Virus record (IMG/VR): IMGVR_UViG_3300049259_000177
Span: 1-64,000 of that record
From: a virus
Length of the DNA: 64,000 bases
Strand: one strand, 5' to 3'
Of this stretch, positions 26,128-44,634 are shown piece by piece (positions within the stretch are counted from its first letter, which is position 1; each line of letters begins with the position of its first letter). The notes beneath the pieces are model-generated. The model did no database searches. It worked only from the letters and a program-made list of their open reading frames with translations, and was not told the DNA's origin. A program made the translations under genes and the position numbers.

Positions 26128-26315
26128 GGCGGGGAGCCCGGTGCCACCAGTGCGAGCGAAGCGACCCGCTCACAGCCCGGCCCGGCGAGCCGGACGACCT
26201 TACCAACCCCTCCGGGGCGCCTGATCTTGCAAGCCGGGTTCCCCGCCGACGGCACCGGCCCCTGGCCTGGGCCCGGCTCGCCGTCTGGCCGTCACCGTGT
26301 GCACCGGCGACGGCC
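26128..26315 (-). ncRNA. pseudoknotted structured RNA or leader (candidate)
   Basis: 11-, 11- and 14-bp helices, two of them crossing; starts just after class-C promoter 26323-26357. Confidence 0.5.
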
Positions 26316-26404
26316 CGCCTTGAATCTAGGGCCGAGTGTCCTCGACGTGGCGCATCAACGAAGCACGAGCCAGGACTTGCGCGGGATTAACGCGCGAATT
26401 TTCG

Positions 26405-26498
26405 GCCGACTGTCGGCACCCTTTGTAAGTAAGCAACCGGTTGCTTACTTACAAAAGCGCCCCGGCCGGGGGTTGCTTGTGGCAAGCAACTTACTTAC
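26405..26498. repeat. AT-rich palindrome cluster including a perfect 34-bp palindrome
   Basis: TTTGTAAGTAAGCAACCGGTTGCTTACTTACAAA at 26422-26455; further inverted repeats at 26405-26417, 26460-26471, 26472-26490. Confidence 0.9.
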
Positions 26499-26721
26499 GT
26501 GGCACGTCGGGCGTCGGGCGTGGTTTCGACAGGGTGAACCGCACGAGTGACACGCTCACGCCCAATCGGCGGGCGATCTCCGGCGGGCGCAGCGAAGCGT
26601 CCTCGACGCGCATGTCGTGGATGGCGGCATCGCGGCGGGCTCGGGCACAGGCGGCAGCCGACTCGTGGCGCTGCTCGTCGGCGATTGCCTGCTTCGCGCG
26701 AACCTCCGGGGTGGCGCTCAC
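26491..26721 (-). CDS. small HTH DNA-binding protein
   Basis: RDAAIHDM.....PPEIARRLGVSVSLVR. Confidence 0.75.
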   Translation of the reverse strand: MSATPEVRAKQAIADEQRHESAAACARARRDAAIHDMRVEDASLRPPEIARRLGVSVSLVRFTLSKPRPTPDVPRK

Positions 26722-27296
26722 GGGGTGATCACGGGCAGTGGGCCCAGGTGATAGGGGTCGCCGGGTGCGGGCAGGTACGCGCCGACGCACGGCAACAACA
26801 GGACCCGGCGCCCACCGTAGAGCACGACCGGCACGTCGTCGGGTTCGAGGTTGTTCTCCCGGTCGATCAGCCAGCCGAGCGCGCGGGCGGTGTTGCGGTT
26901 GCTCTCGATCCATCCGTGCACGCCGGTGGTGCCGTCGCCGGTGACCGCGAGCAGGTTCGCCAGCGAGTTCGTGTTCGGCCGGTCGGTGCCGCCCATCCCG
27001 CGCGCTCGCCGGTGGTGCGCGCTCCATCGCCCGGCCCGCAGTGGCGCACCGGTGACCTCGCACCGGCCGCCGCAGCGCAGGATCAGCATGTTGCGCACAG
27101 CCGACCATTCGGCCCGGTCGAGGTGCGCCTTCGGGAACGGCGCCGAGTTGCCCCAGTCCAGCCCGCATGAGCAGACGTAGGACAGGTCACCGTCGGCGTC
27201 CCAGGGCAGGGCTCCACCGCAGTGTGGGCAGCGCGACTCGGTGACGATCGGCCGATTGCCGGTGTCACGGAACGCCGGTGATTTCACCCGACCCAT
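26718..27296 (-). CDS. HNH endonuclease
   Basis: RCGGRCE...HHRRARGMGG...NLLAV.G.GTTG.HGWIE. Confidence 0.8.
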   Translation of the reverse strand: MGRVKSPAFRDTGNRPIVTESRCPHCGGALPWDADGDLSYVCSCGLDWGNSAPFPKAHLDRAEWSAVRNMLILRCGGRCEVTGAPLRAGRWSAHHRRARGMGGTDRPNTNSLANLLAVTGDGTTGVHGWIESNRNTARALGWLIDRENNLEPDDVPVVLYGGRRVLLLPCVGAYLPAPGDPYHLGPLPVITP

Positions 27297-27520
27297 CGGA
27301 CCCGGCCTCGCAGGTCGACGTGCTGGCGCGCGCCGCAGCGTTGGCAGACGACGTGACTGGCGTCGACGTGCACGGCCGCGCCGGTACCGCCGGTGACGAA
27401 CGCCACCGAGTCGACCGTCGCCTTGTCGATGATCTTGAGCGGCCGGTGGTGCGCGATGCGGCAGGCGGTGCGGCGGATGGCTTGCTTGATGTCCTGCCAC
27501 AGTGGCCCCGGGTTCACCAC
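27284..27520 (-). CDS. small zinc-ribbon protein
   Basis: C...H...CQRCG. Confidence 0.6.
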   Translation of the reverse strand: MVNPGPLWQDIKQAIRRTACRIAHHRPLKIIDKATVDSVAFVTGGTGAAVHVDASHVVCQRCGARQHVDLRGRVRWVG

Positions 27521-28242
27521 GTCATCTCACCGCCGTCGATGCGCTCGCCGGACACCTTGAGCACGGTGCAGTCGTCGAGGAGGCGTTGAACGATCGGGTC
27601 GCCGTAGCGCTCGACAAGCCCGTCGTAGCCGAGGTTGGTCGTCGATGCGGTCCGTAGCCCCTCCCGGTTGCGATGGTCGAGGACCCGCTGCAACTGCTCC
27701 AACGTCCACGCGGACACCTGCTCCCGGCCGATGTCGTCGAGCACGAGTAGTCCGACACCGGTCGCCCGGTGGTAGGCGGTGTCATCACCATCGGGACGCA
27801 GTGCCGCGTTGAGGTCCGCGAGCGACCACGCGGCTGCGTAGCCGCCCTCGGCGACATAGGTGTTGCCCAGGGCATAGACCCCGAAGGTCTTGCCGTGGCG
27901 ACTGGGACCGGCGAGCAGCAGGTTCAGCGCCTTCGGGTCCTCGCCGACGGCGAGCGCGAGCCAGTCGCGCAGCAGAGCGGGTCGTTGCTGCGGCCGTAGC
28001 GCGTCCAGGCTGGCGTTCACGTACCGGCGTGGCAACCGGCCCCGCCAGACCCATTCGCGCGCTTCCTGCTGGCGGCGCTGGCGCTCAGCCGCGTCCTCGG
28101 CGGGCTCGACGGTCTCGGCCGGAGCGGGCTCGACGTCACCGAACCGGTCCCGCACCTCCGCCATGATCTTGCCGAACGGCATCGGACCGGCATCTTCGAG
28201 CGCGGCACGCACCGGCTCGGGTGCGTGGCGGTGCATTCTCAC
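27514..28242 (-). CDS. DnaC/IstB-like ATPase (helicase loader)
   Basis: Walker A GPSRHGKT, Walker B LLVLDDIG, TTN motif; LPRRY..ASL. Confidence 0.9.
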   Translation of the reverse strand: MRMHRHAPEPVRAALEDAGPMPFGKIMAEVRDRFGDVEPAPAETVEPAEDAAERQRRQQEAREWVWRGRLPRRYVNASLDALRPQQRPALLRDWLALAVGEDPKALNLLLAGPSRHGKTFGVYALGNTYVAEGGYAAAWSLADLNAALRPDGDDTAYHRATGVGLLVLDDIGREQVSAWTLEQLQRVLDHRNREGLRTASTTNLGYDGLVERYGDPIVQRLLDDCTVLKVSGERIDGGEMTW

Positions 28243-29162
28243 CCGGTCTCCTCGAACATCGCCCGCTGCTCCTGGCGCAACGTGTCCTGTCCAGTGTCGA
28301 CGTGCTTGGTCGCAACCTGCCGCGTCACCCCGCCCAACGACGACTTGCCTTCACGCATCGCCCGGCAGGCGCGATCGAGTTGGGCAGTCGACGGCCAGAC
28401 CGTGTCGTCGCGGGTCTTTATCGCCCGCAATGCGTCAGCGATTTCTCGCTGAGTGAACCCTGAGCGTCGGGCCCCACGGATGAGGTTGCGGAAGCCCGGG
28501 AACCCTGAGCCCCTCCCGGCAGTCACCGGCTTCGGATCGAGGCCCTCCCACCACCACGTCGCGACCTCGTCAGCCTCTTGCTCGGGCGTCTTCTCCCCGG
28601 CCGCCTGCGTCGCAGGCGGATCTTTGGTTCCCTCGGTAGTTGCTACCTCGGTAGTGGTTCCTTCTGTACTTACTCCACCCGGGTTTCCCGCATCCGGGTC
28701 GCCCGCATCCGGGTCGCCCGGTTCCTGAGAATCCGTGTCTGGAACGCTCGAAGGGCTCGGATTCTCCGGTTCCTGAGAATCCGTGTCTGGCGATGACCTG
28801 GGCGTTTGCTTGTCCTCGGCGCCCTCCTGTTTGTTGTCCGCGCCACCCTTGCCGTCAGCGTTGAGTGCGTAGCGGGTGCGGCGCAGGTTGCCCTCGTAGT
28901 AAGGCTCGCGCTCCATGAGGTCGGCGACGGCTAACTCCCTCAGCGCGGTATAGATGGCATCACGACCCTCTTTGAACACCGTCGCGAGGTGGTTCGCGCG
29001 GCACGTCCAGCCATCAGGGCGCCCGATCAAGTAGACGAAGATGCCCCAGGCGCGGGCGCTGAGTTTGCCGTCGGCGGGGAGCAGGTCGTTGTAGACCACG
29101 GTGTAGCCGCGCCGCCGTCGCACGACGATGCCGGGACCACCCTGTTCGACTTCCTCCGTCAT
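28239..29162 (-). CDS. replication initiator (replisome organiser, N-terminal wHTH)
   Basis: YTVVYN...LSARAWGIFVYL..RPDGW...EGRDAIYTALREL; upstream of DnaC; internal repeats. Confidence 0.85.
   Translation of the reverse strand: MTEEVEQGGPGIVVRRRRGYTVVYNDLLPADGKLSARAWGIFVYLIGRPDGWTCRANHLATVFKEGRDAIYTALRELAVADLMEREPYYEGNLRRTRYALNADGKGGADNKQEGAEDKQTPRSSPDTDSQEPENPSPSSVPDTDSQEPGDPDAGDPDAGNPGGVSTEGTTTEVATTEGTKDPPATQAAGEKTPEQEADEVATWWWEGLDPKPVTAGRGSGFPGFRNLIRGARRSGFTQREIADALRAIKTRDDTVWPSTAQLDRACRAMREGKSSLGGVTRQVATKHVDTGQDTLRQEQRAMFEETG
28621..28790. repeat. iteron-like repeats, putative replication origin
   Basis: 25-bp repeat at 28718-28742/28766-28790, tandem 15-mer at 28687-28716, adjacent AT-richer tract. 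Confidence 0.7.
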
Positions 29163-29602
29163 GCGGCTCGCCATTCTTCGAGTAGGCGTCGGCCCTTCGA
29201 GGAGTTGCAGGGTTGGCACGCCAGCACGAGGTTGTCTGCTCCATTGCCGCCGCCTCGGCTGCGCGGCACGACGTGATCGACGGTGTGCGCCCAGATCGGT
29301 AGCGGGGCGGCACAGTAAGCGCATCCAAAGCCGTCCCGCAAGCCAAGAGTCACGTACCGGCGCACCTTGACCGGGAGGTTCTTCGGTCCCGGCCACTCCG
29401 AGCCCTTGGCGATCTGCTTCAACGTGAAGGTGAGGCCGACACCCTCAGCAAGCGCCAGCATCTCCCGCACGTACTCCACGTCCAGTGCGGCGGAGCAGTA
29501 CCCACACGACCGACAACAGCCATGTGGATCAGCCTCGCTCCGAGGCCGCGTCAAGTCGACGGCGACCCACTCATCGGGCGGGGCTGACAGCGCGATGCTC
29601 AC
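29159..29602 (-). CDS. HNH endonuclease (McrA-like)
   Basis: RDG..CAYC...TVDHVVPRSRGG....DNLVLACQPCNSSKG. Confidence 0.9.
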   Translation of the reverse strand: MSIALSAPPDEWVAVDLTRPRSEADPHGCCRSCGYCSAALDVEYVREMLALAEGVGLTFTLKQIAKGSEWPGPKNLPVKVRRYVTLGLRDGFGCAYCAAPLPIWAHTVDHVVPRSRGGGNGADNLVLACQPCNSSKGRRLLEEWRAA

Positions 29603-30090
29603 CGGGGCTCCGCCTCCTCCTGGGCCGCCTTGGCGATGCGGTGCAGTAGATCGCGGGCGGCGCGCAGTTCGTCGGCCTGCTGGGCGACACGGAACCCCGG
29701 TCCGTCCCCGAGCCGCTTGGTGGCAGCAGTGAACGCGACGTCGACATCGGTCGGCGAACTGAGCAGCGATCGCCAGCCTTCCGTGACCTGGGTGTAGCGC
29801 GGATGGTCAGACTGCTCCGCGAGCCACTGGGCGGTCTGCTCGGCCGACTCCTCCTGCTTGACGTGCTGGTCGCGGGTGAGCGCTCGGGCCTGGTCGACGG
29901 CCGCGACGAGGGCGACGTCGGCCCGCGCCAGAGCAACGTCGTACTCCCCGCCGAGTTCCCCGCCGAGCACATCGACCACGAGCCCCTTCGGGCAACCGGT
30001 CACCGCCTCGATCACCGCCTCGGTGATGCCGATGCAGCCAAGCAGCCGGACGACCCGGGCAACATCGGCAGAGACCGGGCCGTCGTTCAC
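29599..30090 (-). CDS. hypothetical protein
   Basis: coupled ORF. Confidence 0.7.
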   Translation of the reverse strand: MNDGPVSADVARVVRLLGCIGITEAVIEAVTGCPKGLVVDVLGGELGGEYDVALARADVALVAAVDQARALTRDQHVKQEESAEQTAQWLAEQSDHPRYTQVTEGWRSLLSSPTDVDVAFTAATKRLGDGPGFRVAQQADELRAARDLLHRIAKAAQEEAEPR

Positions 30091-30449
30091 AACGCGACGC
30101 CGACGTCACCGGCTTCGACGGCGCGTTCGAGATCCCCTCGCATCTTGCGGCGCTGCCGCGCGGACGCGGCCCCCCACACGCCTTCCGGGGTGCGGGTCGT
30201 CTGCGAGTAGGCGAGACACTCGTCGGCGACCGAGCAGCGCTGGCACAGCCGTTTGGCGGCAGTGGCCTTGCGGTGCTTCGGCGGGAAGAACGCGTCTGGG
30301 TCGATGCCATCGACACACAGGGCGTCGTCCATCCAGTCGGTGTTTCCGGCGTCGGCTGGGAACAGTAGCGACCAGTCGAAATCGTCCGGCAACTGTAGTG
30401 GCGTGCTCGCCACCTCCGGTACGAACTCGGTCTCGGCTTCGATCGTCAC
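30087..30449 (-). CDS. whiB: WhiB-family transcription factor
   Basis: W..DALC....PDAFFP....AKRLC.RC.V..ECL.Y......GVWG....QRR. Confidence 0.92.
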   Translation of the reverse strand: MTIEAETEFVPEVASTPLQLPDDFDWSLLFPADAGNTDWMDDALCVDGIDPDAFFPPKHRKATAAKRLCQRCSVADECLAYSQTTRTPEGVWGAASARQRRKMRGDLERAVEAGDVGVAL

Positions 30450-31840
30450 GCGGTCACCGCCTGCTGGTCGTCGGGGGTTGCTAGCGGCACCACGGCGTCA
30501 GGGGCGCTGGCGAGCACTTCCTCGGGGGTCGGGGGCTTGGGCTTGCCGGGCCGCTTCGCGGCGCGGACCGGCTTGACCGAGGTCCACTTGTCTCGGCGCT
30601 TCGGCGGGTCCGGCAAGGCGGCAAGTCGTGGCCGCGCGTCGTCGGGCTCGTCGAACAAGCCCTCCAATTGGGCAACGCGTTTCTTCGGGTCCGGCATCCA
30701 CCGTCCGCTCTCGCCGACCTCGAACGCGCCGTAGGTGTCCGGCGGCACGCCATCGAGCAGCGCGAGCCCCTCTTTCTCCTGCCTCTCGGCGGCGGACTTG
30801 CGCTGCTTGGCGTCGTACGTCGCGGCGGCGAAGTATTCGACCTCGACCGGGTCGACGTCTTCACCGAGCACCGTCAACGACTCCGGTGAGCGGCCGAGCG
30901 CCTTCGCTTTCGGAATGTTCCAGCAGTGACTACGAGCAAAACAGCCCCGGCAGATGCCGTCGGTGCTCGGCCCGGAGCGGGTGCGCGGCAGGTGACCACC
31001 GGCGTCGAGTGTCGCGGCATAGCCGAGCAGCCGATCGAGGGCCTGCTGTGCACGCTCCTCGTCGTAGGGCCGGGCGAAGACCTCGTCGTGGCCGTTCTCG
31101 CGCTTGATGTAGACGAGCCGCACGGTGTGCACCGGGAAGCCCATGCGGATCATCGCCAGCGCGTAGATGTAGACCTGCTCCCACGTCTCCTCGTCGGGCC
31201 CCTCGTCGCCGAGATGGTCCCACTTCCAGTTGCCTGCCGTCTTCCCGTCATCGAGGGTCATCGTGACCGGGTCGTAGCGGTCGAGCCGGGTGTTCTTCGA
31301 GTCCAGTCCCGGCACTTGCACGACGTACTCGTGCAGACGCCACGGGTAGAGCACCTCGGAGACGTTCACCCAGTCGCGGTGGACCATCGCGCCGATGCGC
31401 GCGGGTCGCTTGTCTTCCGGGTCCGGCTTGAAACCCTCCGGTGGTCGCTCGCGGTACTCGATCGCCTTGGGGCAGTTCGCTGTGTCCGACGGCCCGATGC
31501 CGAGAGTGCCTTCGGCGCGCGGGGTGCGCTTGGCGCGCTCGCGCCGCTCGAACTCCCGCAGTTCGTCGCCGAAGGTCATCTCCGATGCGTTGAGGGCTTT
31601 CTCGACGAGCACGTCGACGACGTCGCGCCGGTAGCGAGCACAGCCGGTGCGGGGGCACTTGCCGGATCGACTGGTACCGGTGTGCTCCCAGCGTGGCGCA
31701 CTACAGACACACGGTTCGGGCGCCGGGCCCATCGGAGTGTCCGAGTCGGTGAGCCGGGCGAGCACGCGCTCGCGCGCCTGCTCGATCGGTAGTCGGCGTA
31801 GCCTTGGTGGCAACACCGGTTGCTCGACAATGGTGGTCAC
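30446..31840 (-). CDS. Cas4/RecE-like PD-(D/E)xK exonuclease
   Basis: PS....CPK..Y, G..VH, LD...DGKT, Q..IY, C..C.....C; N-terminal zinc motif. Confidence 0.8.
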   Translation of the reverse strand: MTTIVEQPVLPPRLRRLPIEQARERVLARLTDSDTPMGPAPEPCVCSAPRWEHTGTSRSGKCPRTGCARYRRDVVDVLVEKALNASEMTFGDELREFERRERAKRTPRAEGTLGIGPSDTANCPKAIEYRERPPEGFKPDPEDKRPARIGAMVHRDWVNVSEVLYPWRLHEYVVQVPGLDSKNTRLDRYDPVTMTLDDGKTAGNWKWDHLGDEGPDEETWEQVYIYALAMIRMGFPVHTVRLVYIKRENGHDEVFARPYDEERAQQALDRLLGYAATLDAGGHLPRTRSGPSTDGICRGCFARSHCWNIPKAKALGRSPESLTVLGEDVDPVEVEYFAAATYDAKQRKSAAERQEKEGLALLDGVPPDTYGAFEVGESGRWMPDPKKRVAQLEGLFDEPDDARPRLAALPDPPKRRDKWTSVKPVRAAKRPGKPKPPTPEEVLASAPDAVVPLATPDDQQAVTA

Positions 31841-31857
31841 GTCGATCCTCCTGACTT

Positions 31858-32049
31858 GCCGGGGTTCGCTCTCCCCGGCGGGGGTGGCGGCTGAGGTCGA
31901 GACGCGGGACGCTACGCCTCGGCCTCACTAACGTCGCGTCGAGCGGCGCTAAGTGGGTGTGCTTTCACAGTAGGGGAACCTAGCGCACCCCGCCGACAGA
32001 AACCGACAACCCGTTACGGGTTGTCGGTTCGGCGTGTCGGGTGTACGGT
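31858..32049. promoter_or_regulatory. divergent control region
   Basis: hairpin B 31858-31879, class-C promoter 31909-31942, box-A variant 31947-31959, 29-bp palindrome 32001-32029, TTGTCG-N17-TACGGT 32021-32049. Confidence 0.75.
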
Positions 32050-32103
32050 CTCAGCACCTTGTCGGGCACCGGCCCGGCCACCACGAGCAAGAGGAGTGTC
32101 GTC

Positions 32104-32706
32104 ATGCACACCGTCAAGGCACGCCCGATCACCGTCGCCGACGTCGAGGTCGGCCGCAAGATCCTCCACGCACACGGCGTCGGCTACGTCGACGCGGAGG
32201 TTGTCAACGTCCGTACCAAAGAGCGCGTCCGCCGTGAGGGTGGCGACCGGGGCCCTGTCGTCGAGACCGGAACCGAGACCCACTTCGGCATCCGCAGCGC
32301 CACCGGCTACGAGACGGGCGGTGCGTTCTATCCGGCGTTCCTGCCGCCGCAGTCCCGTGGCTCGGACCCTGGTCTGTCCTTCCTTGTTCCCGACGAGGAC
32401 GGCGAGATCGAGGCGCCGGTGCTCGACTACATCGGCTGCGTCACCCGAGGCATCGGACTCAACGTGTTCATCCGTGACGAGACCGACCCGGAGGTCGCCG
32501 CTAAGCGGGTGCGCGAAGCGCTCGGCGATGCCGGACTGGAAGTCATCGGCGACGCCGTGACCTGCGTACCCGTCACCGAGCAACGTGTCGTTATCTACGA
32601 CATCGGCAACGACAGCCCTCGGGGCGTCTGCTTCGAGCACGAGTCGTCGACGATCTCCAAGCGCAGTGCGTACCGCACCGACTACCTGCCCGTCGGGGCT
32701 CAGTGA
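32104..32706 (+). CDS. hypothetical protein
   Basis: AGAGGAG RBS; contains a box-A copy at 32499-32511. Confidence 0.75.
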   Translation: MHTVKARPITVADVEVGRKILHAHGVGYVDAEVVNVRTKERVRREGGDRGPVVETGTETHFGIRSATGYETGGAFYPAFLPPQSRGSDPGLSFLVPDEDGEIEAPVLDYIGCVTRGIGLNVFIRDETDPEVAAKRVREALGDAGLEVIGDAVTCVPVTEQRVVIYDIGNDSPRGVCFEHESSTISKRSAYRTDYLPVGAQ

Positions 32707-33086
32707 CCGAGGGCGAACGCGAGGGCTGGCCGAAAGGCTGGCCCTCGCCGGTGCTGGACCCGACGATGCACCCCCGAGTCATGGAGATCTGCGACCCGGA
32801 CACCTCGGAGGTGCTCGGCGGCGCGGTTTTCGGTGAGGACGACGAGTACGTCATCGTGAACCCGGCGACGCTTGCGACGCTGCGTGACTTCCCCACCTGC
32901 CATGTCGCCAGCGGGCCGCCACAGATGCCGCCCTGGCGGGTCGAAACGCCGGTCTACGCGGCGCTGGTCGACACGCTCGGCATCGAGCCCGTCGGCGTAG
33001 CCGCACGGCAGTGGACCGACGTGATCGCGAACGCGGTCTGGCACGACACCGGCGTGTCCTGGGATCGGCTTGCACTCTCACGCTAA
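32703..33086 (+). CDS. hypothetical protein
   Basis: GTGA overlap; stop lies inside box A. Confidence 0.7.
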   Translation: MTEGEREGWPKGWPSPVLDPTMHPRVMEICDPDTSEVLGGAVFGEDDEYVIVNPATLATLRDFPTCHVASGPPQMPPWRVETPVYAALVDTLGIEPVGVAARQWTDVIANAVWHDTGVSWDRLALSR

Positions 33087-33134
33087 GCGGGTGTACGATG
33101 AGCCGACGCGGGAGAGCGACCCGCCGGACAGGAG
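33070..33134 (+). promoter_or_regulatory. box-A promoter cassette with hairpin B
   Basis: TTGCAC-N18-TACGAT; gcggg-AGAGCGA-cccgc at 33108-33124; ACAGGAG. Confidence 0.88.
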
Positions 33135-33142
33135 ACAGGGCA

Positions 33143-34111
33143 ATGATCGAGAACCTCGCCACCGCAACACCTTCCGAGATCGACACCGTGCTTGCCGACC
33201 TCTACGACAAGGCGTGGGCGCTGGGCATGGAGTGCTCGCGCCGTGTCGACGCCGTGTTCTACGAGGCCGGTGCAAAGCGGGTCAGCCGCAGCGCCCGCCA
33301 CCGCGACTGGAACATGACGCTCGACGAGGCGACGGCCGTCGTCGAGGCCAGGGCCAGCGAGGGCAACGAGAAGTCCTGGGAGCGCGCAGGCGCACAGCAC
33401 GTGCTCGACGCTCTCGCCGACGCCCGCAAGGCCTCCGCTGCCAACCGTGACGAGCAGGCCCCCCTGCACGCCGAGTTCACCCGGCGTGGCGGCTGGACCC
33501 GCGCGTTCCTCGTCGTCACTCAGGGCACCGGCCATGTTCATTCGTCGATGCACTGCTCGACCTGCTTCGACACGACCCAGTTCGCCTGGCTCCCCGAGTT
33601 GTCCGGCAGCGACGAGACCGCCATCGTGGCCGCCGCCGGTCAGGACGCCTGCACCGTCTGCTACCCGAGTGCGCCGGTCGACACCGCAGGCCCGCGCAGC
33701 ATCTACTCGAAGGGCGAGCGCAAGACGGCCGAGGAGCGCGCGACCTGGCAGGCCGAACTCGCCGAGAAGCGCGCCGTGCGGGAAGCCAAGGCGATCTATG
33801 ACGTGGACGGCTCGACGCTCCGCGACGGCCACGGCTTCGAGATCAAGACCGAGCGCACCGCGCAGACCGTCTATGTCAACGCCGCCGCCGATGCCATCCG
33901 CTACGCAGCCGAGGCCGAGGGGCCGATCGCCTCGTGGGTTACCCGGGGCCACGACGAGTACCGGGCGCACCTGCGCACGCTGGCAGTCGAGTACGCCGCA
34001 CAGGCCGAGCGCGTCCTGGCCGCCCTTGCCGCCAAGCGGGCCACGACGGTCGAGGAGCAGCGCGAGGCGCTGGCCCGCAAGGTTTCCGCCAAGGTCAAGC
34101 AGAACGCCTGA
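33143..34111 (+). CDS. hypothetical protein with H-x-H..C..C / C..C metal motif
   Basis: GWTRAFLV...GHVHSSMHCSTC...CTVCYPSAP. Confidence 0.85.
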   Translation: MIENLATATPSEIDTVLADLYDKAWALGMECSRRVDAVFYEAGAKRVSRSARHRDWNMTLDEATAVVEARASEGNEKSWERAGAQHVLDALADARKASAANRDEQAPLHAEFTRRGGWTRAFLVVTQGTGHVHSSMHCSTCFDTTQFAWLPELSGSDETAIVAAAGQDACTVCYPSAPVDTAGPRSIYSKGERKTAEERATWQAELAEKRAVREAKAIYDVDGSTLRDGHGFEIKTERTAQTVYVNAAADAIRYAAEAEGPIASWVTRGHDEYRAHLRTLAVEYAAQAERVLAALAAKRATTVEEQREALARKVSAKVKQNA

Positions 34112-34123
34112 GCGCAAACCACT

Positions 34124-34158
34124 AAGGGCCCTGGGCAAGTCGCCCGGGGCCCTTTCTT
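34124..34158. terminator. hairpin terminator between convergent genes
   Basis: AAGGGCCCTGGGC-aagtc-GCCCGGGGCCCTT followed by TCTT. Confidence 0.8.
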
Positions 34159-36806: not shown

Positions 36807-36811
36807 CCTGA

Positions 36812-38227
36812 CTAGACCTTGCCGCTCACGACGACGTGGTAGGCGTTGAGCGCCGGAGGCGTACCGAAACGCAGCGTGATGGTGTTCGCGTCGGTGACGT
36901 CCCACTCGGTCAACGTGTTCTTGCCGTCGGAGTTGCGCCGCACCGACACGGCGGCGACCTGCGTGCTGCCGAGGTTGTGCGGGATCGCGTACACAGTCGC
37001 AGCCCCGTCGCCGACATCCTGCTCGTAGGCGCGGACCGCCCCGGAGATCTTCGAGACGGCGATCGCGGCGGCGGCCGCAACGTCCGCATTGACGATGGTT
37101 CCGTCGGCGATCTTCGCTGACGTGACGGCACCGTCGGCGATGTTGGTCGTGCCGATCGCCAGTGCTGCGATGTCAGTGCCGACGATGGTTCCGTCGGCGA
37201 TCTTCGCTGACGTGACGGCACCGTCGGCGATCTTCGCGTTGGTGATCGCAAGGTCGGCGACGTTGGTAGTGGCGATCGTCAGGTTGGCGATCTTCGCGCC
37301 AGTGATCGTCGCGTCCTGCATGTCACCGGCGACGATCGTCCCGTCGGCGATGTGTGCGCTCGTCACACCACCGGCGGCGAGACCGATCTGCGGGTTGACG
37401 CCGCCGGTCGAGGTGATCGGCCCAGCGCCGGTGACGGATTGCACGCCGTCGACGGGGCTCTGAAGTTCCTGCCAGTTGGCGAGGACCGTCGGGTCGGCGC
37501 CTTGCAGGATGAACGAGTCGTGGATGTCGGTTCGGATCGCGACGTCGCCGGGCTCGGCAGCGAGCGCGAGCATCGCGGCCTGGCTGGCGACGACAAACGT
37601 GTTGGTGATCGCGAGCGCCGGAAGCAGGCCGGTCGGCAGTAGTCCGTTCGCGTCGAGCCCGGCGAAGCCGTTGGCGACGTTGCGGCCACCGACGATGTTG
37701 GTGACGCGTGCATCGGTGGCGAAAGCGAAGTCGGAGATCGTCGCGGCGGTCTGCGTGCCCGTGTGGTTGGCGCGGGCGAGCGGGTCGACCGCCAGTTTGC
37801 TCAGCAGGATCGCGGCACCGGCCGCAATGTCGGCGTCGACGATGTTGAGCGCGGCCAGTTTCGCTTTCGCGATTGCGGCACCGGCCGCAATGTCGGCGTC
37901 GACGATGGTTCCGTCGGCGATCTTCGCTGACGTGACGGCACCGTCGGCGATCTTGCCGGTGGTCACGGCGAGCGGAGCGACCGTCGGGTTCGGGTAGTTG
38001 CCCGCCAGGTCGCCTCCGGCCGGGCCGGACGGAGCGGTCGAGCCGAACACGACGGACTGTACCTGCGCGCCGTCCCAGTAGCGGATCTGGTCGGTCGAGG
38101 TGTTGTACCAGACCCGGCCCTCGTCGGCGGCTATCAGCCCGGACGGGTCGGCGGCGAGCGCCTGCAACTTGAGGTTGAAGATCTGGAACCCCGCCATGTC
38201 GAGGTTGTTGGTTGCCGGGATAGCCAC
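36812..38227 (-). CDS. tail fibre protein with VTSAKIADGT repeats
   Basis: 10-aa repeats, NGFAGLDANG, ASQAAMLALAAEPGDVAIRTD, C-terminal HNLG domain. Confidence 0.85.
   Translation of the reverse strand: MAIPATNNLDMAGFQIFNLKLQALAADPSGLIAADEGRVWYNTSTDQIRYWDGAQVQSVVFGSTAPSGPAGGDLAGNYPNPTVAPLAVTTGKIADGAVTSAKIADGTIVDADIAAGAAIAKAKLAALNIVDADIAAGAAILLSKLAVDPLARANHTGTQTAATISDFAFATDARVTNIVGGRNVANGFAGLDANGLLPTGLLPALAITNTFVVASQAAMLALAAEPGDVAIRTDIHDSFILQGADPTVLANWQELQSPVDGVQSVTGAGPITSTGGVNPQIGLAAGGVTSAHIADGTIVAGDMQDATITGAKIANLTIATTNVADLAITNAKIADGAVTSAKIADGTIVGTDIAALAIGTTNIADGAVTSAKIADGTIVNADVAAAAAIAVSKISGAVRAYEQDVGDGAATVYAIPHNLGSTQVAAVSVRRNSDGKNTLTEWDVTDANTITLRFGTPPALNAYHVVVSGKV
37091..37951. repeat. three identical 51-bp direct repeats
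   Basis: 37091-37141, 37181-37231, 37901-37951. Confidence 0.9.
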
Positions 38228-38235
38228 CGTTGCTC

Positions 38236-38904
38236 CTAGATCTCGACGCTGCCGGACATCGGTGCACCGAAACGGACCTGCACAGTGTCCGCGTCGACGT
38301 ATTCCAGGTCGACCATTCGCAGTTCGCGGCCGGTCGAGTCGCGGACGGTCACCGGGAGGATCGCGTGCTTGTTGTGCTGGATCGTCCAGACTGCGCTCGG
38401 CATCGGCACGTCGTAGTGGTCGCGCTGGTAGGCGCCGAACGGACCGGGCTCGCCCTGGATGCCCTGCTCTCCCCGCTCTCCCTGGTCGCCTTTGGAGGAC
38501 CACAGCCGCCAGTACACCGAGTCGAAGGCGGCCATCGGCGGCAGGTCGATCGGCGTGCCCCACGTCGCGCCGTCGAAGTGCACGAGGGACTGCGCCACGT
38601 ACGCCGTGCCGGGCTGCCACTCGCCGGTGTCGACCCACGGGGGACCCGGCGGGCCCGTGCGACCCGGCGGGCCCGGCTGGCCGGTATCGAGCACAGTGAC
38701 GTCGGTTTCGACGTCGGCGCTGCCGTCAACAGGGATCGTCGAGCCCGCTGGCTGGTCGCCGACCACGACAAGGCTCGGGGCGCCCGGCGCAGGCTCCTCG
38801 GTGACGACGCCGGGCTCTGGGTCGGCGTCCTCGACGACGACAGTCGTCGGCGGCGGCTCCGGGTCGCCGACGACGACGATCGAGCCGTCGGAACCGGCCG
38901 TCAC
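38236..38904 (-). CDS. collagen-like minor tail protein with CBM5/12-like module
   Basis: GXY runs; GEWQPGTAY...VHFDGATW; WTIQHN C-terminal domain. Confidence 0.75.
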   Translation of the reverse strand: MTAGSDGSIVVVGDPEPPPTTVVVEDADPEPGVVTEEPAPGAPSLVVVGDQPAGSTIPVDGSADVETDVTVLDTGQPGPPGRTGPPGPPWVDTGEWQPGTAYVAQSLVHFDGATWGTPIDLPPMAAFDSVYWRLWSSKGDQGERGEQGIQGEPGPFGAYQRDHYDVPMPSAVWTIQHNKHAILPVTVRDSTGRELRMVDLEYVDADTVQVRFGAPMSGSVEI

Positions 38905-39284
38905 ACCGTCACCCTCGGGCGAGTGACGCTCGTGTCGATGGACTGCGCCCCGGCGGCGAACTTCACCGGCACGCCGCCGTCCGGCGGATAGAGGAACAGG
39001 TCGTAGACACCGGCACGCCGCACGGTCCAGCCCTGCTCCTCGGCGAGCGTGAGCGTGATCGTCCCGGCCGGGCCACCCAGTTCGATCAGGCCCTCGCCGT
39101 CACCCGGAGCCGTGTCGAAGGCGACGATCAGGTGACTGTCACCGGCCGCCGGGCGAGACTCGGCCCGGGCGGTGTAATCGGAGATGTCGACCGGGCTACC
39201 GTCGGCGTGCTCCCAGGTGAACGGCAGCCGGAACGGCAGGCCCCACGTGATCGTGAAGTCGTGCACGACGATCGGCTTGGTCAC
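38901..39284 (-). CDS. BppU-N-like fibre/baseplate adaptor
   Basis: PVDISDYTA...GTITLTL...GVYDL; leaderless after class-C promoter 39291-39325. Confidence 0.65.
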   Translation of the reverse strand: MTKPIVVHDFTITWGLPFRLPFTWEHADGSPVDISDYTARAESRPAAGDSHLIVAFDTAPGDGEGLIELGGPAGTITLTLAEEQGWTVRRAGVYDLFLYPPDGGVPVKFAAGAQSIDTSVTRPRVTV

Positions 39285-39331
39285 GAGAGCAGGCTCCCCG
39301 ATCGAGGGGGTTAGTGTCGCCCCGACCCCGC

Positions 39332-39399
39332 TTGCGCTCTCACGCTAAGCGGGTGTACGGTCTTGGTTGTGCGGGAGAGCGACCCGCCGGACAGGAGAC
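39332..39399 (+). promoter_or_regulatory. box-A promoter cassette with hairpin B
   Basis: TTGCGC-N18-TACGGT; hairpin 39371-39387; 29 nt identical to the 33108 cassette. Confidence 0.88.
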
Positions 39400-39403
39400 G
39401 ATC

Positions 39404-39757
39404 ATGGCGAAAGGCAACTGGCGCCGCCGGGACTTCGGCTGGCTGCGCGCCGACGGCGAGGCGTTCCTAGAGCGAGGCGCCCCAATGAGCGACACCGGCA
39501 AGCCCGCGTGGCTGGTCTGGATTCGCGCGCTCGACAGCGAGATCGAGATCGGCGAGGGCGGCACCGTGCTTACCCGCGATGGCTGCGACCCGGTCCGCGC
39601 GCTCGGCGAACTGTGCGGCAACGAGCCGTCGCAGGTCCGCCCCGACGGCCCGTGGTTCATTCACCGTGGCGACGAGGGCTGGCTGGCCGACGCGAAGGCC
39701 GCCGCCGAATACCACCTCGCGCGTCGTGACGAGAAGGCCGACGCGGTGACGCGCTAG
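39404..39757 (+). CDS. hypothetical protein
   Basis: ATG after ACAGGAG. Confidence 0.8.
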   Translation: MAKGNWRRRDFGWLRADGEAFLERGAPMSDTGKPAWLVWIRALDSEIEIGEGGTVLTRDGCDPVRALGELCGNEPSQVRPDGPWFIHRGDEGWLADAKAAAEYHLARRDEKADAVTR

Positions 39758-39809
39758 ACCAGCGCCGACGTGACCTACGGTGGCCGGGAGATCTCGACGA
39801 GAGGACGCC

Positions 39810-40205
39810 ATGACCACCGACGCCGCACCGCTCACCCGGGCCAAGGCCGTCATTCGCAAGCAGCCCGCAGCAGACGGCAGGGGCCAGCCGTGGGAAGCGC
39901 ACGGCTGGCAGTGCCCGTGCGGCAGCGACAACGGCAAGACCGTGATAGCGACGAAGCAGGACGCGGAGAACGCCGCCGACCAGCACACTCGCGAGTACCA
40001 CCTGTCGACGGTGCTTGCCGACCTCGGGTCGCTGCACAGCCGCGACCAACTCAAGGTGGGCGCCACGTTCGTCGGCGACATCGTGCGCTTCGTCAAGGAA
40101 ACCGAGAAGGGCACCTACGTCGAGACTGCCGCGCACGGCCGCTACGTCATCGACGATTCGAGTCAGGCGAAGCCGTACACCGATGGCCCAGCGCGGCCGG
40201 AGTAG
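39810..40205 (+). CDS. hypothetical protein (class-C promoter 39748-39781)
   Basis: GAGAGGA RBS; C-x-C..H motif. Confidence 0.7.
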   Translation: MTTDAAPLTRAKAVIRKQPAADGRGQPWEAHGWQCPCGSDNGKTVIATKQDAENAADQHTREYHLSTVLADLGSLHSRDQLKVGATFVGDIVRFVKETEKGTYVETAAHGRYVIDDSSQAKPYTDGPARPE

Positions 40206-40527
40206 CCGCCGGGCCGAGGAACTGCAACGCGAGGCGCTCGACGAGAAGGCGAAGCCTGTCCGGCTCGAATGCGTGCCGTGCGGGCACCGGTGGCGGATGC
40301 AGCGGCACGACACGTGGAACGAGACCTGCCACGCGGCCGTGAGGTTCCTCGACCAGCACCAACAGACTTGCGAGGCGTATCAGCGTCTCGCCGAACGGAT
40401 GGCAGCGGAGGCCGCAGGTGATCCCAGCACTGGGCAAGGCGACGTACCCGGACGAGAGCAAGGCGACGCCAGTGCCGATCCTGTTCCTCGACACCGAAAC
40501 TACGTCCCTGCGCCCGCCGTGGCGTAG
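40183..40527 (+). CDS. zinc-finger hypothetical protein
   Basis: CVPC...H...C. Confidence 0.55.
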   Translation: MAQRGRSSRRAEELQREALDEKAKPVRLECVPCGHRWRMQRHDTWNETCHAAVRFLDQHQQTCEAYQRLAERMAAEAAGDPSTGQGDVPGREQGDASADPVPRHRNYVPAPAVA

Positions 40528-41092
40528 CGCACCTCGGCGGCCGTGGGAGATCGGCGCGATCCGACGCGAGACGAACGGCTCCGAGCAGGAGTGGCAGTGC
40601 TTCGTCGAGGACGTCGACCTGACCGACGCTGACCCGATGTCACTGTCGTTCGGCCGGTTCTATGACCGACACCCGCAGTACGCGGGTCATATTGTCCACG
40701 ACCCGGACGCGCGAGTGCGTCGTGACGGCGCGGGCTGGCGGATGGACTCAGAGGCCGAAGTCGCGCTGCTCGTCGAGTGGCTCGCGCGCGGCGCCCATAT
40801 CGTGGGCACCGTGCCCGACTTCGACGTGACGACGGGCGACCAGATGCTTGAGCGTTGGGGGCTCGCGTGGCCCGCGCACTACCACCTGATCTGCGCCGAA
40901 GTGTACGCAGCCGGAGCGATCGGCTGGGTGCCGCCGTACGATTCGAAGGAACTCTCGCTGGCGTTGGGCGTCGACCCGTCGGCGTACACCGCACACGAAG
41001 CGCTGGAAGACGCTCGCTGGGCGAGGGATCTTTTCGACGCCACCCGGACGCATACCGGCACTCGCGTCGCTCAGCCGTCGACGCGACACTAA
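40472..41092 (+). CDS. DnaQ-like (DEDDh) 3'-5' exonuclease
   Basis: FLDTETT, P.FD, HEALEDA. Confidence 0.85.
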   Translation: MPILFLDTETTSLRPPWRSAPRRPWEIGAIRRETNGSEQEWQCFVEDVDLTDADPMSLSFGRFYDRHPQYAGHIVHDPDARVRRDGAGWRMDSEAEVALLVEWLARGAHIVGTVPDFDVTTGDQMLERWGLAWPAHYHLICAEVYAAGAIGWVPPYDSKELSLALGVDPSAYTAHEALEDARWARDLFDATRTHTGTRVAQPSTRH

Positions 41093-41170
41093 CCAGCCCC
41101 TCGGGGGACGCTACGCGCGGCACAGTAGTCGCGCCGCGACGCCTTCCGCCATGCACCGAGGAGCGCACCC

Positions 41171-41893
41171 GTGGCAGTCACCACCCACAACGGCCGTACC
41201 TTCGACCGGCGCGTGCACTTCGACGAGAAGTCGCGCGCGTTCCCGATCCGCACCGTCATCGGGCCGGTCGCACGAGTGCCGAAGCAGTGGCGTCCCGGCA
41301 TGACCCTGGACCAAGGCGAGGAAGGCACTTGCGTAGGCCACGGCTGGGAGGCTGAACTACTCGCCAGCCCGGTGCGAGTGAAGGTTGCCGATGCGGCGGC
41401 CGGTCACCAACAAGCCGTCGGGATCTACGAGCGCGCAAAGCAACTCGACGACGAGCCGGGCGAGGCGTACGAGGGCACCTCGGTGATCGCCGGTGCGAAA
41501 GTGCTCGTGGAGCGCGGCTACATGGCGGAGTACCGGTGGGCGTTCGGCATCGACGACCTGATCGACGCCGTCGTCGCGCACGGCCCGGTGGTCGTCGGCA
41601 CCGACTGGCACGACGGCATGTATCAAACGCGGCCCAGCGGGTTGATAGAGGTCGGTGGGCCGGTCGTCGGCGGCCATTGCTGGTTGATCTACGGCTACCA
41701 CCCCGCCATGCGCATCCGGGGCGAGGACTGGAAAGCGCGATACGAGGTCCTGCGTATGAGGAATTCATGGGGGCCGACCTATGGACTCGGAGGTTCCGGG
41801 CTCATCAAGGTCGAGGACATGGACGCCCTGCTGAAAGCGCAGGGTGAATGCTGCGTCCCCACTCGCCGAGCCTACGGACCAGCCGCCGCTTAA
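41171..41893 (+). CDS. papain-like (C1-type) cysteine peptidase
   Basis: DQG.EGTCVG, GGHC.LIYGY, RNSWG give Q-C-H-N catalytic set; class-C promoter 41078-41112. Confidence 0.85.
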   Translation: MAVTTHNGRTFDRRVHFDEKSRAFPIRTVIGPVARVPKQWRPGMTLDQGEEGTCVGHGWEAELLASPVRVKVADAAAGHQQAVGIYERAKQLDDEPGEAYEGTSVIAGAKVLVERGYMAEYRWAFGIDDLIDAVVAHGPVVVGTDWHDGMYQTRPSGLIEVGGPVVGGHCWLIYGYHPAMRIRGEDWKARYEVLRMRNSWGPTYGLGGSGLIKVEDMDALLKAQGECCVPTRRAYGPAAA

Positions 41894-42036
41894 GGGCCGC
41901 GCCGCCCGCCCTGCACAGCCAGTCCGATCAGCCAGATCACGAGCATGACCAGCGCGACCCACCACAGGACGTGCACGGCAAAGCCGACGCCGCCGAGGAT
42001 CAGCGCGAGCAGTAAGACCAGCAGGAGAGCGCCCAT
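41890..42036 (-). CDS. small actinobacterial hydrophobic membrane protein (48 aa)
   Basis: MGALLLVLLLALILGGVGFAVHVLWWVALVMLVIWLIG; ATG 7 nt after TAACGT. Confidence 0.75.
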   Translation of the reverse strand: MGALLLVLLLALILGGVGFAVHVLWWVALVMLVIWLIGLAVQGGRRGP

Positions 42037-42046
42037 ACTCGGCACG

Positions 42047-43633
42047 TTACCCGGCTGGGCCCTCGCCAACGCCTGCTTCGAGGTCCGCCACGGTGTGGAT
42101 GGGGTCGTCGCGGTAGAACCCGCAGCCGGGAGCCTGGCACTCCGGGTTCGACTTACGCCGCTTGTCCTGCATGAACTCGTGTGGGCCGTCGACCTCCTGC
42201 TCGGCCTCCGGGGTGTGTGCCACCTCGGGCGCCTGGGCGTCAGGAGCGGGCTCCGCCGTTGTCGGCTCGGCGGCGGCCACGGCTTCGCTGTCAGCGGCAC
42301 CGTCGACAATCTCCGCGTCCTCGACGTCGCCGGGCTCGCCCGCGTCCTCGCCGCCGGTGCCGGACAGTACGGCGTCCAGGTCGGCGATCACCGGCGCGGA
42401 CTCGTCGCTCGCCCACACGGCGTAACGTTCCGCCTCGGCCCGGCGGGATTCGTCGCCGCGCAGTTTCTCGACGATCATCGAACGAAAGCCGTGCACCATC
42501 GGCGCAAGCGCGTTCAAGGGGAAGTCCTCGATGTTCTGTCGCCGGGCACGCACGAAGCGGCTGGCGAGTCCCGCCGGGGTGTTGCCCATCTGCTCGGCCT
42601 GCCACCCAAGTTCTACGAGCCAGGCGGCCCGGGCGGCTTTCTCGTCGAGTACCTCGCCCGTCGTCCCGTCGACGGGCTCCTGCTGCTCAGCGGTGGCGTC
42701 GGCGGGCTTCCCTGGCTCCGTCGGCGGTTCCGGGGCCGCAGCGGGTTCCTGAGGGGCACCGGGGGCCGTCTGCGCCGCCTTGGCACGAGCGAACGCTTCC
42801 TTGCGCTGCGCGGCCCGCTCTCGCTCCTCCCGGGCCTTCTCCTCCATGTCGGCGCGGTGCATCTCCTCAAAGGTGACAGTCCCAGCGAACTCGTCGGGGA
42901 ACACCTTGCGCAGCACCAGTGCTTCACTGCATTTCGCAAGCATGTGGTGGAAGCCCTTCTGCCACATCTCGCCGAGTTCCATGATCTGCGTGCCGTCCTC
43001 GCCGACGACCGGCACCTTGCGACGACTACCCTGTGCGCCCTGCCACTCGAACTTCGGGTAGAGCGGCGCGTACATGCCCCAGTGGGCGACGGCGTCGGAG
43101 ACGACCATCTGGCCGAAAGCATCGTAGTGACGGATGACGGCCTTGGCTGCGCCCGGGTAGCCCCGCGATTCGGGCCACTCGTCGTACCACACGCGCTGCA
43201 TGACGCCGGTGGCCTCGTTGTAGCGCCAGCAAGCGGGGTCGTCGTCGTCGCCGGTCCACAGCCAGGTGGCGGAGCCGACGAGGAGTCTGGTGCGGGCAGC
43301 GATCGTGCGATACCCATCAATCCCGACCTGAATGGTGAACTTTGCCTTGTCGCCCTCGCCACGCTGAATGAGGTACGCCTGCCTGCGCCACGGATCTACG
43401 TTCATCCGCTGGCAGACGTGCAGGAAGACTCTGAGGTGCGGGCGGGCGCGCTCATCGTCCGGGTTGGCGTTGGTGATTGCCGACAGCGCGGCTTTCTGCT
43501 CCGGGGTGAGCCGGGTCTGGTTCGGTTCGAGGGTCAGCGAGCCAAGGGTGACTACACCTTCCGGCTCAGGAATCTCGTCGGTGGTCGGGATCTGCTGTTC
43601 CTGCGGTGGCGCCTCGGCCGTAGTGCTGGTCAC
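42047..43633 (-). CDS. bet: Bet/RecT-family single-strand annealing recombinase with long C-terminal extension
   Basis: DPWRRQAYLI.R...TIQVGIDGYRTIA.R...MW.K...MLAKCSEALVLRKVFP. Confidence 0.9.
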   Translation of the reverse strand: MTSTTAEAPPQEQQIPTTDEIPEPEGVVTLGSLTLEPNQTRLTPEQKAALSAITNANPDDERARPHLRVFLHVCQRMNVDPWRRQAYLIQRGEGDKAKFTIQVGIDGYRTIAARTRLLVGSATWLWTGDDDDPACWRYNEATGVMQRVWYDEWPESRGYPGAAKAVIRHYDAFGQMVVSDAVAHWGMYAPLYPKFEWQGAQGSRRKVPVVGEDGTQIMELGEMWQKGFHHMLAKCSEALVLRKVFPDEFAGTVTFEEMHRADMEEKAREERERAAQRKEAFARAKAAQTAPGAPQEPAAAPEPPTEPGKPADATAEQQEPVDGTTGEVLDEKAARAAWLVELGWQAEQMGNTPAGLASRFVRARRQNIEDFPLNALAPMVHGFRSMIVEKLRGDESRRAEAERYAVWASDESAPVIADLDAVLSGTGGEDAGEPGDVEDAEIVDGAADSEAVAAAEPTTAEPAPDAQAPEVAHTPEAEQEVDGPHEFMQDKRRKSNPECQAPGCGFYRDDPIHTVADLEAGVGEGPAG

Positions 43634-44013
43634 GTGCTCCTCCTGGTTGCCGGGTCGCTCTCCGGCGATCGGTCTGTCCTCGATGATGGGGTACGGGTAC
43701 GACAGTTTGGCGCGACATAGTCATTCGCAAGTTGCAGCACGACGTTGCACGCGATGGCCCACAGGTCGGGCCGGGCCTGCCGCAACCGGAGGGCGCGCGC
43801 GACCTCGCGGCGCTTGTCCTCGGGAATGCGCTGCCAGCACATCGCGCACACGACGTTGCCGTAGCGCACGGACAGGCCGCAGCCATGTGTCGGACAGTGG
43901 TGACGGCCACGGGTCTCGACGAACGGCTGGGTATAGACGCCGGGCGCCCGCCACTCGCGTGGCTGGGTCTCCGGCGGCAGTTCTTCGAGGTAGGCGATCT
44001 CGGCGGCGGTCAT
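43630..44013 (-). CDS. zinc-finger hypothetical protein
   Basis: CP..GC...C..CW..IP. Confidence 0.65.
   Translation of the reverse strand: MTAAEIAYLEELPPETQPREWRAPGVYTQPFVETRGRHHCPTHGCGLSVRYGNVVCAMCWQRIPEDKRREVARALRLRQARPDLWAIACNVVLQLANDYVAPNCRTRTPSSRTDRSPESDPATRRST
43636..43716 (-). promoter_or_regulatory. class-C promoter plus hairpin-B leader of bet
   Basis: GTCGCG-N22-CATCAT; gccgg-AGAGCGAC-ccggc at 43649-43666; AGGAGG. Confidence 0.75.
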
Positions 44014-44057
44014 GTCGGGGCGCCGGACCCGTAACGGCCTATGCGGAAGGGCGCCGC

Positions 44058-44369
44058 TCACCGCGAGCAGGCGCCGGTGTGCCCGGGCGGCTTGCGCGGC
44101 CCCGGTTCACCGGCGGGGTCGCCGATGCCGCAGAAGGGGCACAGCGCACGCTCGCGCTCGGAAGAGGCGAGCATCTCGACGACGATGCGGCGGGTCAGGT
44201 CGTGCGGCAACCGAACCCCGGCAGCCTCAGCGGCGCCGGACCACTCCTCCTCGGTGAAGTGCGCAGCCTTGTCGGCGGTGATGTCCATGCCGGACAGCCG
44301 CAGGTACAGACTGAACGCCTTGTTGCGGCGCGCGACCGTCTCGCGCTCCTCGGCGACGGTGGTGATCAC
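44058..44369 (-). CDS. hypothetical protein
   Basis: AGGAGG RBS; first gene after box-A promoter. Confidence 0.75.
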   Translation of the reverse strand: MITTVAEERETVARRNKAFSLYLRLSGMDITADKAAHFTEEEWSGAAEAAGVRLPHDLTRRIVVEMLASSERERALCPFCGIGDPAGEPGPRKPPGHTGACSR

Positions 44370-44377
44370 GGATCTCT

Positions 44378-44447
44378 CCTCCTGGCGGGCCGGTTCGCTC
44401 GCCAGCCCTCACCACGGAGTGTACCCGCTTAGCGTGACAGTCCGCAA
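44378..44447 (-). promoter_or_regulatory. box-A promoter cassette with hairpin-B variant
   Basis: TTGCGG-N18-TACACT; gggctgg-CGAGCGAA-ccggccc at 44387-44408. Confidence 0.8.
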
Positions 44448-44463
44448 CAAGGGATTGCAGCAG

Positions 44464-44607
44464 GGCCCGCCCTGGCGAGTACGTGTGCCGGGTCATCGGG
44501 GGAGCGACCCCTCGCCGACACTCGGCCACTGTCCCGGCCAGGAGGGGGACCGAAGTCCCACACTTTTCACCGGGGAGCGCCTCGTGACGTGACCGCCAGG
44601 ACGAGCC
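44464..44607 (-). ncRNA. stand-alone structured small RNA (candidate)
   Basis: 14-bp closing stem with 2 G-U, cUUCGg hairpin, own promoter TTGAGC-N18-TATCCT at 44623-44652. Confidence 0.6.
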
Positions 44608-44634
44608 ATCTGTGCAGCGATCAGGATAGGGCCG

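Follow-up and report, generated by a model that had tools for sequence, protein, structure and literature searches.

We analysed a 64-kb stretch of viral DNA, hereafter the window, which is the first part of a 114.6-kb virus contig in IMG/VR (IMGVR_UViG_3300049259_000177; genome label G000). The subject is a structured element at 44.5 kb, which sits immediately upstream of the promoter of an operon encoding RecT (Pfam RecT). The contig comes from soil, has a G+C content of 68% and an estimated completeness of 88%, and nearly all genes of the window are encoded on the minus strand. The sequence is present in four soil DNA runs of a single study, and both elements treated here, at 44.5 kb and at 26 kb, are variant-free among their contigs.

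Many operons of this phage begin with a common leader cassette. Its promoter is box A (GCTAAGCGGGTRTAC, preceded by a -35), of which the window has 11 copies where 0.14 would be expected, and the whole genome 13. The promoter box is followed after ~10–15 nt by hairpin B, then by ACAGGAG and a start codon 16–23 nt on. Hairpin B, a name kept from a preliminary description of this DNA, is a covarying stem with the fixed loop (A)GAGCGA. The G000 genome holds ~16 hairpin-B leaders, in all of which GAGCGA is invariant. Distant relatives use the same hairpin B, each under a promoter box of its own: we count ~40 leaders in G001, a 127-kb provirus, 26–28 in G004, at least 16 in G011, an 87-kb phage, and at least 17 in G012, a Micromonospora prophage. 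Searching IMG/VR for the exact box-A 15-mer returned chance matches only.

In the predicted minus-strand fold, the 44.5-kb element consists of a closing helix, a UUCG-tetraloop hairpin carrying a strand complementary to the Shine-Dalgarno (SD) sequence, and a second hairpin with a UCGCU loop (Table 1). The motif GGGUCGCUC lies at 44510-44502, where the preliminary description had placed it, and the UCGCU loop has an unpaired probability of ~1.0. Read from the other side, this site is an inverted copy of the 13-nt hairpin-B consensus, matching at 12 of 13 positions. Matches of this quality are expected 0.43 times per genome on both strands, and 10 are observed, 9 of which are leaders. Because of the 12/13 match, and because the loop core is kept at the same locus in relatives, the 44.5-kb site is not, by these counts, a product of chance. 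It is very improbable that this site and a similar one at 26 kb are both chance matches in GC-rich DNA. The 8-mer counts do fall near background once leaders are subtracted, and this explanation holds for the 26-kb site, but it is already contradicted at 44.5 kb by the 12/13 match and the conserved position, loop, and architecture.

The anti-SD complementarity of the element had been missed in the preliminary description. The strand is mostly base-paired in the predicted fold, and opening it would cost 3.7–7.1 kcal/mol. Since the element combines an inverted hairpin-B loop with a stretch that mirrors each phage's own SD, it is, at the level of sequence, a message leader in mirror image, comprising both hairpin B and the Shine-Dalgarno. 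On the plus strand, 44498-44511 shows the stem and loop of a hairpin-B cassette, but no gene or start codon goes with it, and the SD is ~31 nt off. On the plus strand near 44440-44495 there is no box-A match, only TTGCAG-N19-TACGTG.

The promoter-like sequence before the element overlaps the stop of an upstream 156-aa open reading frame (ORF), and a strict sigma-70 scan did not pick it up. No intrinsic terminator was found in a scan of 43600-46000. Rfam gave nothing at gathering score in the window, and no match for 44350-44720 at E up to 10.

Further inverted GAGCGA hairpins (45274 and 68406; 51303 and 53381 in G011) were set aside, as they appear coding or weak. The window has a 547-nt gap in codon-usage gene calls at 45106-45652, which is readable as a proline-rich ORF (45117-45656, minus). 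The inverted hairpin at 45274-45299 is probably coding, because it lies inside this ORF.

Table 1. Coordinates of the leader cassettes and structured elements in the window (MFE, minimum free energy; sRNA, small RNA; RBS, ribosome-binding site)
Feature	Position	Strand	Details
Multi-branch structured element, candidate sRNA, 144 nt	44464..44607	-	MFE -82.2 kcal/mol, z -3.2
Promoter-like TTGAGC-N18-TATCCT	44623..44652	-	-35 at 44652-44647, -10 at 44628-44623
Closing helix, 5' arm	44593..44607	-	pairs with 44464-44478; three G-U pairs
C-rich anti-SD strand CCCCCUCCUGG	44538..44548	-	complements the CCAGGAGG RBS of both RecT-operon genes
Hairpin arm: outer stem, asymmetric internal loop with CGAUGAC, inner hairpin	44485..44521	-	about 20 of 23 nt shared with the G011/G012 block
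Inner hairpin GGGG-UCGCU-CCCC(C)	44498..44511	-	plus-strand reading is a hairpin-B copy, GGGG-GAGCGA-CCCC
Box-A promoter of RecT operon	44419..44449	-	-35 TTGCGG, box, -10 TACACT
Leader hairpin B, loop CGAGCGAA	44387..44408	-	GTG of first RecT-operon gene at 44369, 18 nt on
Leader hairpin B directly 5' of RecT	43649..43666	-	RecT at 42047-43633
Structured 5' leader, 188 nt	26128..26315	-	precedes 76-aa gene 25876-26106; MFE -124.4 kcal/mol, z -4.4
Hairpin with second site	26149..26172	-	near 3' end of leader; 8-mer match only
Canonical leader hairpin B	6869..6887	-	loop AGAGCGA; start codon 19 nt on
Further window copies of hairpin B	64-84(-), 11194-11208(-), 31858-31879(-), 33108-33124(+), 39371-39387(+)		positional list

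The element in relatives

RecT protein was used as the anchor for finding relatives, and G011 was reached through a conserved 16-mer. Two metagenome contigs, L022 and L023, encode RecT proteins 52% and 43% identical to that of G000, L023 with synteny from the tail protein to RecT; G012 (also L099) was a further anchor. The closest RecT relatives (P0002-P0004) reach 64–72% identity. A hairpin with an unpaired UCGCU on the RecT-sense strand lies 130–175 nt upstream of the RecT-operon start in G000, L022, L023, G011, G012, and G001, the last having an inverted hairpin-B copy at the equivalent place. The same architecture is found in G000, G011, G012, and L022, with lengths of 144, 143, 142, and 182 nt, and L023 and G001 hold looser equivalents.

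The long closing helix is kept even though its sequences in G000, L022, and the G011/G012 pair are unrelated, and it encloses two hairpins. In the first, the 3' arm complements each phage's own RBS in all four elements; in G011 and G012 this arm is GGGGUCUCC, the complement of their RBS GGAGACCCC. An apical UUCG or UUC loop caps this hairpin in three of the four (G000, G011, G012). The second hairpin carries an asymmetric internal loop and a UCGCU cap throughout, and an unpaired CGAUGAC motif is also conserved. In a MAFFT alignment of four loci, TCGCT-CC is invariant. G011 and G012 have a block of 41 nt without a single difference between them, flanked by sequence that varies with compensatory changes; about 20 of 23 nt of this block are shared with G000 despite a RecT identity of only ~37%.

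The inner stem varies (GGGG/CCCC, GCGG/CCGC, CUCCGG/CCGGAG), whereas the apical loop stays UCGCU(C). The inner stem has a covariation score of 0.55; shuffles give 0.15, and 5 of 500 reach the observed value. Retention of the loop in homologous RNAs had been set in advance as a test of the preliminary description, and at 44.5 kb it held. From this comparison of loci we conclude that the 44.5-kb element is real, conserved, and undescribed.

Wider searches added little. A search with the 16-nt conserved block gave 26 matches with one true homologue (L118). A three-part pattern search yielded chance matches only, of which L152 and L154 are plain terminators and L153 is without hairpin-B leaders. 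When 401 genomes from the Micromonospora prophage's family were searched by BLAST with the element, that prophage was the only match, and the G011 RecT protein search returned only itself. Megablast of 26-46 kb against phages gave no match. In IMG/VR, a single-protein search with RecT found nothing, and a RecT profile search found relatives at no more than 31% identity. G000 and L022 show no similarity in their upstream ORFs.

We notice further features at these loci. Between the element and the RecT promoter, G011 (L129 18700-18760) and G012 (L133 18140-18190) have a strong GC hairpin, kept by compensatory changes (GCAGGGCC... versus GTCAGGCC...) and preceded by a T-run. On the strand opposite RecT, L023 5080-5110 holds 14 nt identical to the RecT RBS region (ACAGGAGGAACCAT), with ATT at the place of the start codon, and resembles a gene-start copy that has been disabled. 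The G012 region (L133-L137; Micromonospora sp. NPDC006766, contig 21) is prophage-like, with the hairpin-B loop UGAGCGA and the RBS GGAGACCCC; this suggests that this phage clade infects Micromonospora-like actinobacteria. Of the cultured relatives found, the nearest is Streptomyces phage Gilgamesh (MN234216.1, L151; 129 kb; host S. lividans), which shows 56% identity to the 193-aa protein of 58961-59542 and only three exact hairpin-motif matches. No Streptomyces record was among the RecT tblastn matches.

Transcribed strand and possible role

On the RecT-sense strand, a TANNNT hexamer lies 7–15 nt before the closing helix in 3 of 3 independent lineages (TATCCT, TAGCAT/TACCAT, and TAGGAT), against a background of 0.001 per position, about once per 1000, in these genomes. 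The opposite strand has no TANNNT at the corresponding place, the other end of the element, in the compared lineages. G011 and G012 have a terminator-like U-tract, UUUU(U), immediately 3' of the closing helix; G000 and L022 have none. The hexamers and the G011/G012 U-tract therefore favour a small RNA of the sense strand.

Of the explanations considered, we hold it most likely, though tentatively, that the element encodes an antisense sRNA of local reach, associated with the RecT operon and acting as a brake. In such a model, the element would have its own minus-strand promoter and yield a small RNA that exposes the UCGCU(C) apical loop together with the C-rich anti-SD strand. By pairing, this RNA would engage a leader at two places, the hairpin-B loop and the RBS. 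Its target would probably be the adjacent RecT-operon leader, or the overlapped divergent leader where relatives have one. In a read-through transcript of G000, the anti-SD strand is moreover predicted to fold onto the downstream RBS; this fold-back is not predicted in L022, G011, or G012.

Several observations weigh against the antisense brake. The full architecture is common to only three independent lineages, and L023 and G001 differ. The fold scores of the two strands disagree among genomes (sense/antisense z of -3.2/-1.6 in G000, -1.5/-3.2 in G011, and -3.9/-3.2 in L022), and G-U counts are mixed across lineages. The UCGCU core is invariant at six loci and so is its target loop GAGCGA, which leaves no room for loop and target to covary. 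The best predicted contact reaches only about -6.7 kcal/mol, and the mean best energy over the leaders is -6.0 kcal/mol versus -4.8 ± 0.8 for shuffles, with 5 of 40 shuffled RNAs as good. Furthermore, the opposite strand looks like a leader, in which hairpin B is followed after ~22–32 nt by a strong SD, and the same position in G001 is a working divergent unit with canonical promoter, hairpin, RBS, and gene.

The last two points bring up a different explanation, which we consider doubtful: the element may be an orphan leader of the plus strand, a remnant of a divergent unit of promoter, hairpin B, and RBS, or such a unit still. In some relatives it would still drive a gene; its product in G000 would be a short RNA, non-coding or acting as a decoy, if any RNA is made. 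On the strand opposite to the RecT operon, G001 has hairpin B and ACAGGAG with a called ORF (79570-80511, ~313 aa), as well as an upstream ATG with ACAGGAG before it, near 79490. In G011 and G012 the hairpin is followed by GGAGACCCC, TTG, and then a divergent 162-aa gene. The G000 and L022 spacing is ~31 nt, and their strong SD precedes a hairpin and then TTTT. The 14 nt in L023 that match the RecT RBS and the antisense fold score of G011 point the same way. However, the plus-strand -10-like hexamers lack a critical base (TACGTG in G000, TACGGG in L022, TGAGAT in G011/G012), and the TANNNT hexamers are on the other strand. G000, L022, and L023 have no ORF on the opposite strand, and the frame between hairpin and gene is not conserved between G011 and G012. 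Besides, a dead relic should not remain alignable at ~40–50% RecT identity. In our reading of these sequences, a divergent leader may be the ancestor, and a sense-strand RNA may be what is conserved now.

The conserved part may also have no antisense role. It could be a structured boundary between the late/lysis genes and the RecT operon, working as a terminator, as an insulator, or as a site on RNA or DNA where a protein binds; the factor that reads hairpin B would then also dock on the conserved loop. Its location, with the upstream ORF immediately before it and the next promoter after it, fits this idea, as do the U-tract in G011 and G012 and the conserved unpaired CGAUGAC, which antisense pairing leaves unexplained. 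We nevertheless regard it as unlikely: G000 and L022 have no U-tract, the terminator scan is empty, and in G011/G012 there is no operon to terminate, because the upstream gene is divergent. The mirror match to both the hairpin loop and the SD would also have to be a coincidence.

Predicted pairing and the 26-kb site

Pairing with leaders was computed by an accessibility-corrected local search; whole-length duplex prediction was dropped as meaningless, because opening costs dominate. The contact of UCGCUC with GAGCGA is the top accessible one for 13 of 16 leaders. The UCGCU loop is thus both unpaired and complementary to its candidate target, as an antisense sRNA would be, while the predicted energies do not stand out from those of the controls. 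Complementarity beyond the 5–6 nt loop core is not conserved, and the 9-nt match in G000 extends into GC-rich stems.

The preliminary description had gone further and proposed a circuit in which one or two minus-strand sRNAs, from 44.5 and 26 kb, kiss the hairpin-B loops and so switch a whole dispersed regulon. The loop core does complement the invariant GAGCGA of ~16 G000 leaders, it gives the top predicted contact for most of them, and the loop is conserved in homologues. But the element co-occurs with RecT and not with the number of hairpin-B leaders: G004, rich in leaders, has no RecT and no inverted copy, and G001, with the most leaders, has only the true divergent leader. The contact covers 5–6 bp only, its energy is matched by shuffles, and the 26-kb partner is at chance level, without a homologue found. 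The regulon-wide switch is thus not borne out, and we find the circuit decidedly improbable. We give equally little credence to the broader picture that a clade of large soil actinophages makes a small RNA from an inverted copy of its own leader, binding the hairpin-B leaders of many operons by means of the UCGCU apical loop and the anti-SD strand; if true, dispersed early and accessory operons would be set by one RNA knob. A local role at the RecT operon is more likely, because the element goes together with RecT, pairing outside the loop core is not conserved, the predicted energy is modest, and the anti-SD strand fits the CCAGGAGG of the adjacent genes.

The second site, GGGUCGCU on the minus strand, is located at 26167-26160 as first described, but the equivalence of the two sites does not stand. 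The hairpin loop here has 4–6 nt, and most of the motif is therefore within the stem. The site matches as an 8-mer and has 4 mismatches to the 13-mer consensus. This 8-mer occurs in 12 copies in the window versus 5.6 expected; 4 copies are canonical box-A cassette hairpins, 1 (43652, minus) is the RecT leader hairpin, and the remainder is about background. The 9-mer with one mismatch is at background frequency as well. No homologue of the 26-kb leader was found in the relatives or loci compared, and the 44.5-kb and 26-kb RNAs share no homology with one another or with any other part of the genome. The suggestion that both sites are plus-strand relics of hairpin B suits the 44.5-kb locus, where G001 has its working divergent leader.

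The stretch 26128-26315 is itself a 5' leader, because it runs without a terminator into the RBS of the 76-aa gene. A -10-like TAGATT precedes it at 26328-26323, its fold scores z -4.4 on the minus strand and z -2.9 on the plus strand against shuffles, and Rfam returned noise matches only for 26050-26520. Judged by these counts, the 26-kb site is at chance level, an unrelated coincidence within a long structured 5' leader.

Other features of the window are recorded here. An AT-rich patch of palindromes or repeats lies directly 3' of the HNH endonuclease gene, at 26405-26498. A similar patch, with ATCTATCT repeats and a terminator-like hairpin, is present in G001 at 69760-69836 (L082), and the patch may mark a conserved packaging site, an origin, or the like. 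There is also a second repeated motif (TAGCGTCGCGTCGAGCG-like), at 31907-31945, 58578-58616, and 59583-59621; it is probably the second promoter class of the preliminary description. Tail-fibre-like genes at 37059-37980 and 47508-49940 have 30-nt periodic repeats in common (GATCGCCGCGTC-type units).

Comparison with known systems

The c4 antisense RNA of phages P1 and P7 (Rfam RF01695) exposes short segments that complement a phage operon at two sites around its RBS, and it is encoded beside its target. The G000 element is likewise phage-encoded, structured, and adjacent to its putative target. In contrast, it shows no match to c4 in sequence or structure in Rfam scans, and its complementary segments mirror a leader motif common to many operons. 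In C-rich-loop sRNAs of Gram-positives and actinobacteria (6C/B11, RsaE, RNAIII hairpins), a C-rich segment can pair with the G-rich SD of several messages. Unlike these, the G000 element has no Rfam match, and its anti-SD strand is largely paired and coupled to a second loop motif.

In IS10, the antisense RNA-OUT lies opposite the 5' leader of RNA-IN, pairing starts from a hairpin loop, and fold-back inhibition also acts. The likeness of our element to IS10, and to art200 of IS200 (PMC4513863), would be an antisense opposite a 5' leader, and the read-through fold-back of the anti-SD strand predicted for G000 resembles fold-back inhibition. The differences are that G000, L022, and L023 are without an overlapping sense gene, and that the fold-back is predicted only in G000. 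By analogy, P1/P7 c4 RNA and IS10 RNA-OUT with fold-back inhibition would be the nearest mechanisms. Even if the RNA acts on the RecT operon alone, this would be a still undescribed control of phage recombination genes, and the element is a small clonable object (~250 bp).

In the T4-type phages RB49 and phi1, PeSL cassettes consist of a strong promoter and a stem-loop and are dispersed in non-essential regions (Arbiol et al., 2010; PMC2839356). They resemble the cassettes of box A and hairpin B in layout only: PeSL stem-loops are terminators and recombination substrates, whereas hairpin B has an invariant loop and is placed downstream of the -10, before the RBS.

The nearest published observation is that of the Start-Associated Sequences (SAS) of Cluster K mycobacteriophages, a 13-nt GGG...CCC motif before the start codons of many non-structural genes (Pope et al., 2011; PMC3203893). 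SAS include the SD itself and form no covarying hairpin, whereas hairpin B covaries. Whether the factor binding SAS is RNA or protein was left open by the authors, and Cluster K genomes carry one unexplained inverted SAS, around which no structured element was reported (PMC3203893). Dispersed leader motifs of actinophages, such as SAS and the GAGCGA hairpin here, have been known for more than 10 years without a known reader. That the leader has a single, conserved mirror-image counterpart, embedded in a folded element that carries its own promoter-like signal, points to RNA, and not protein alone, as a possible reader, and the inverted SAS of Cluster K is a second pointer in the same direction.

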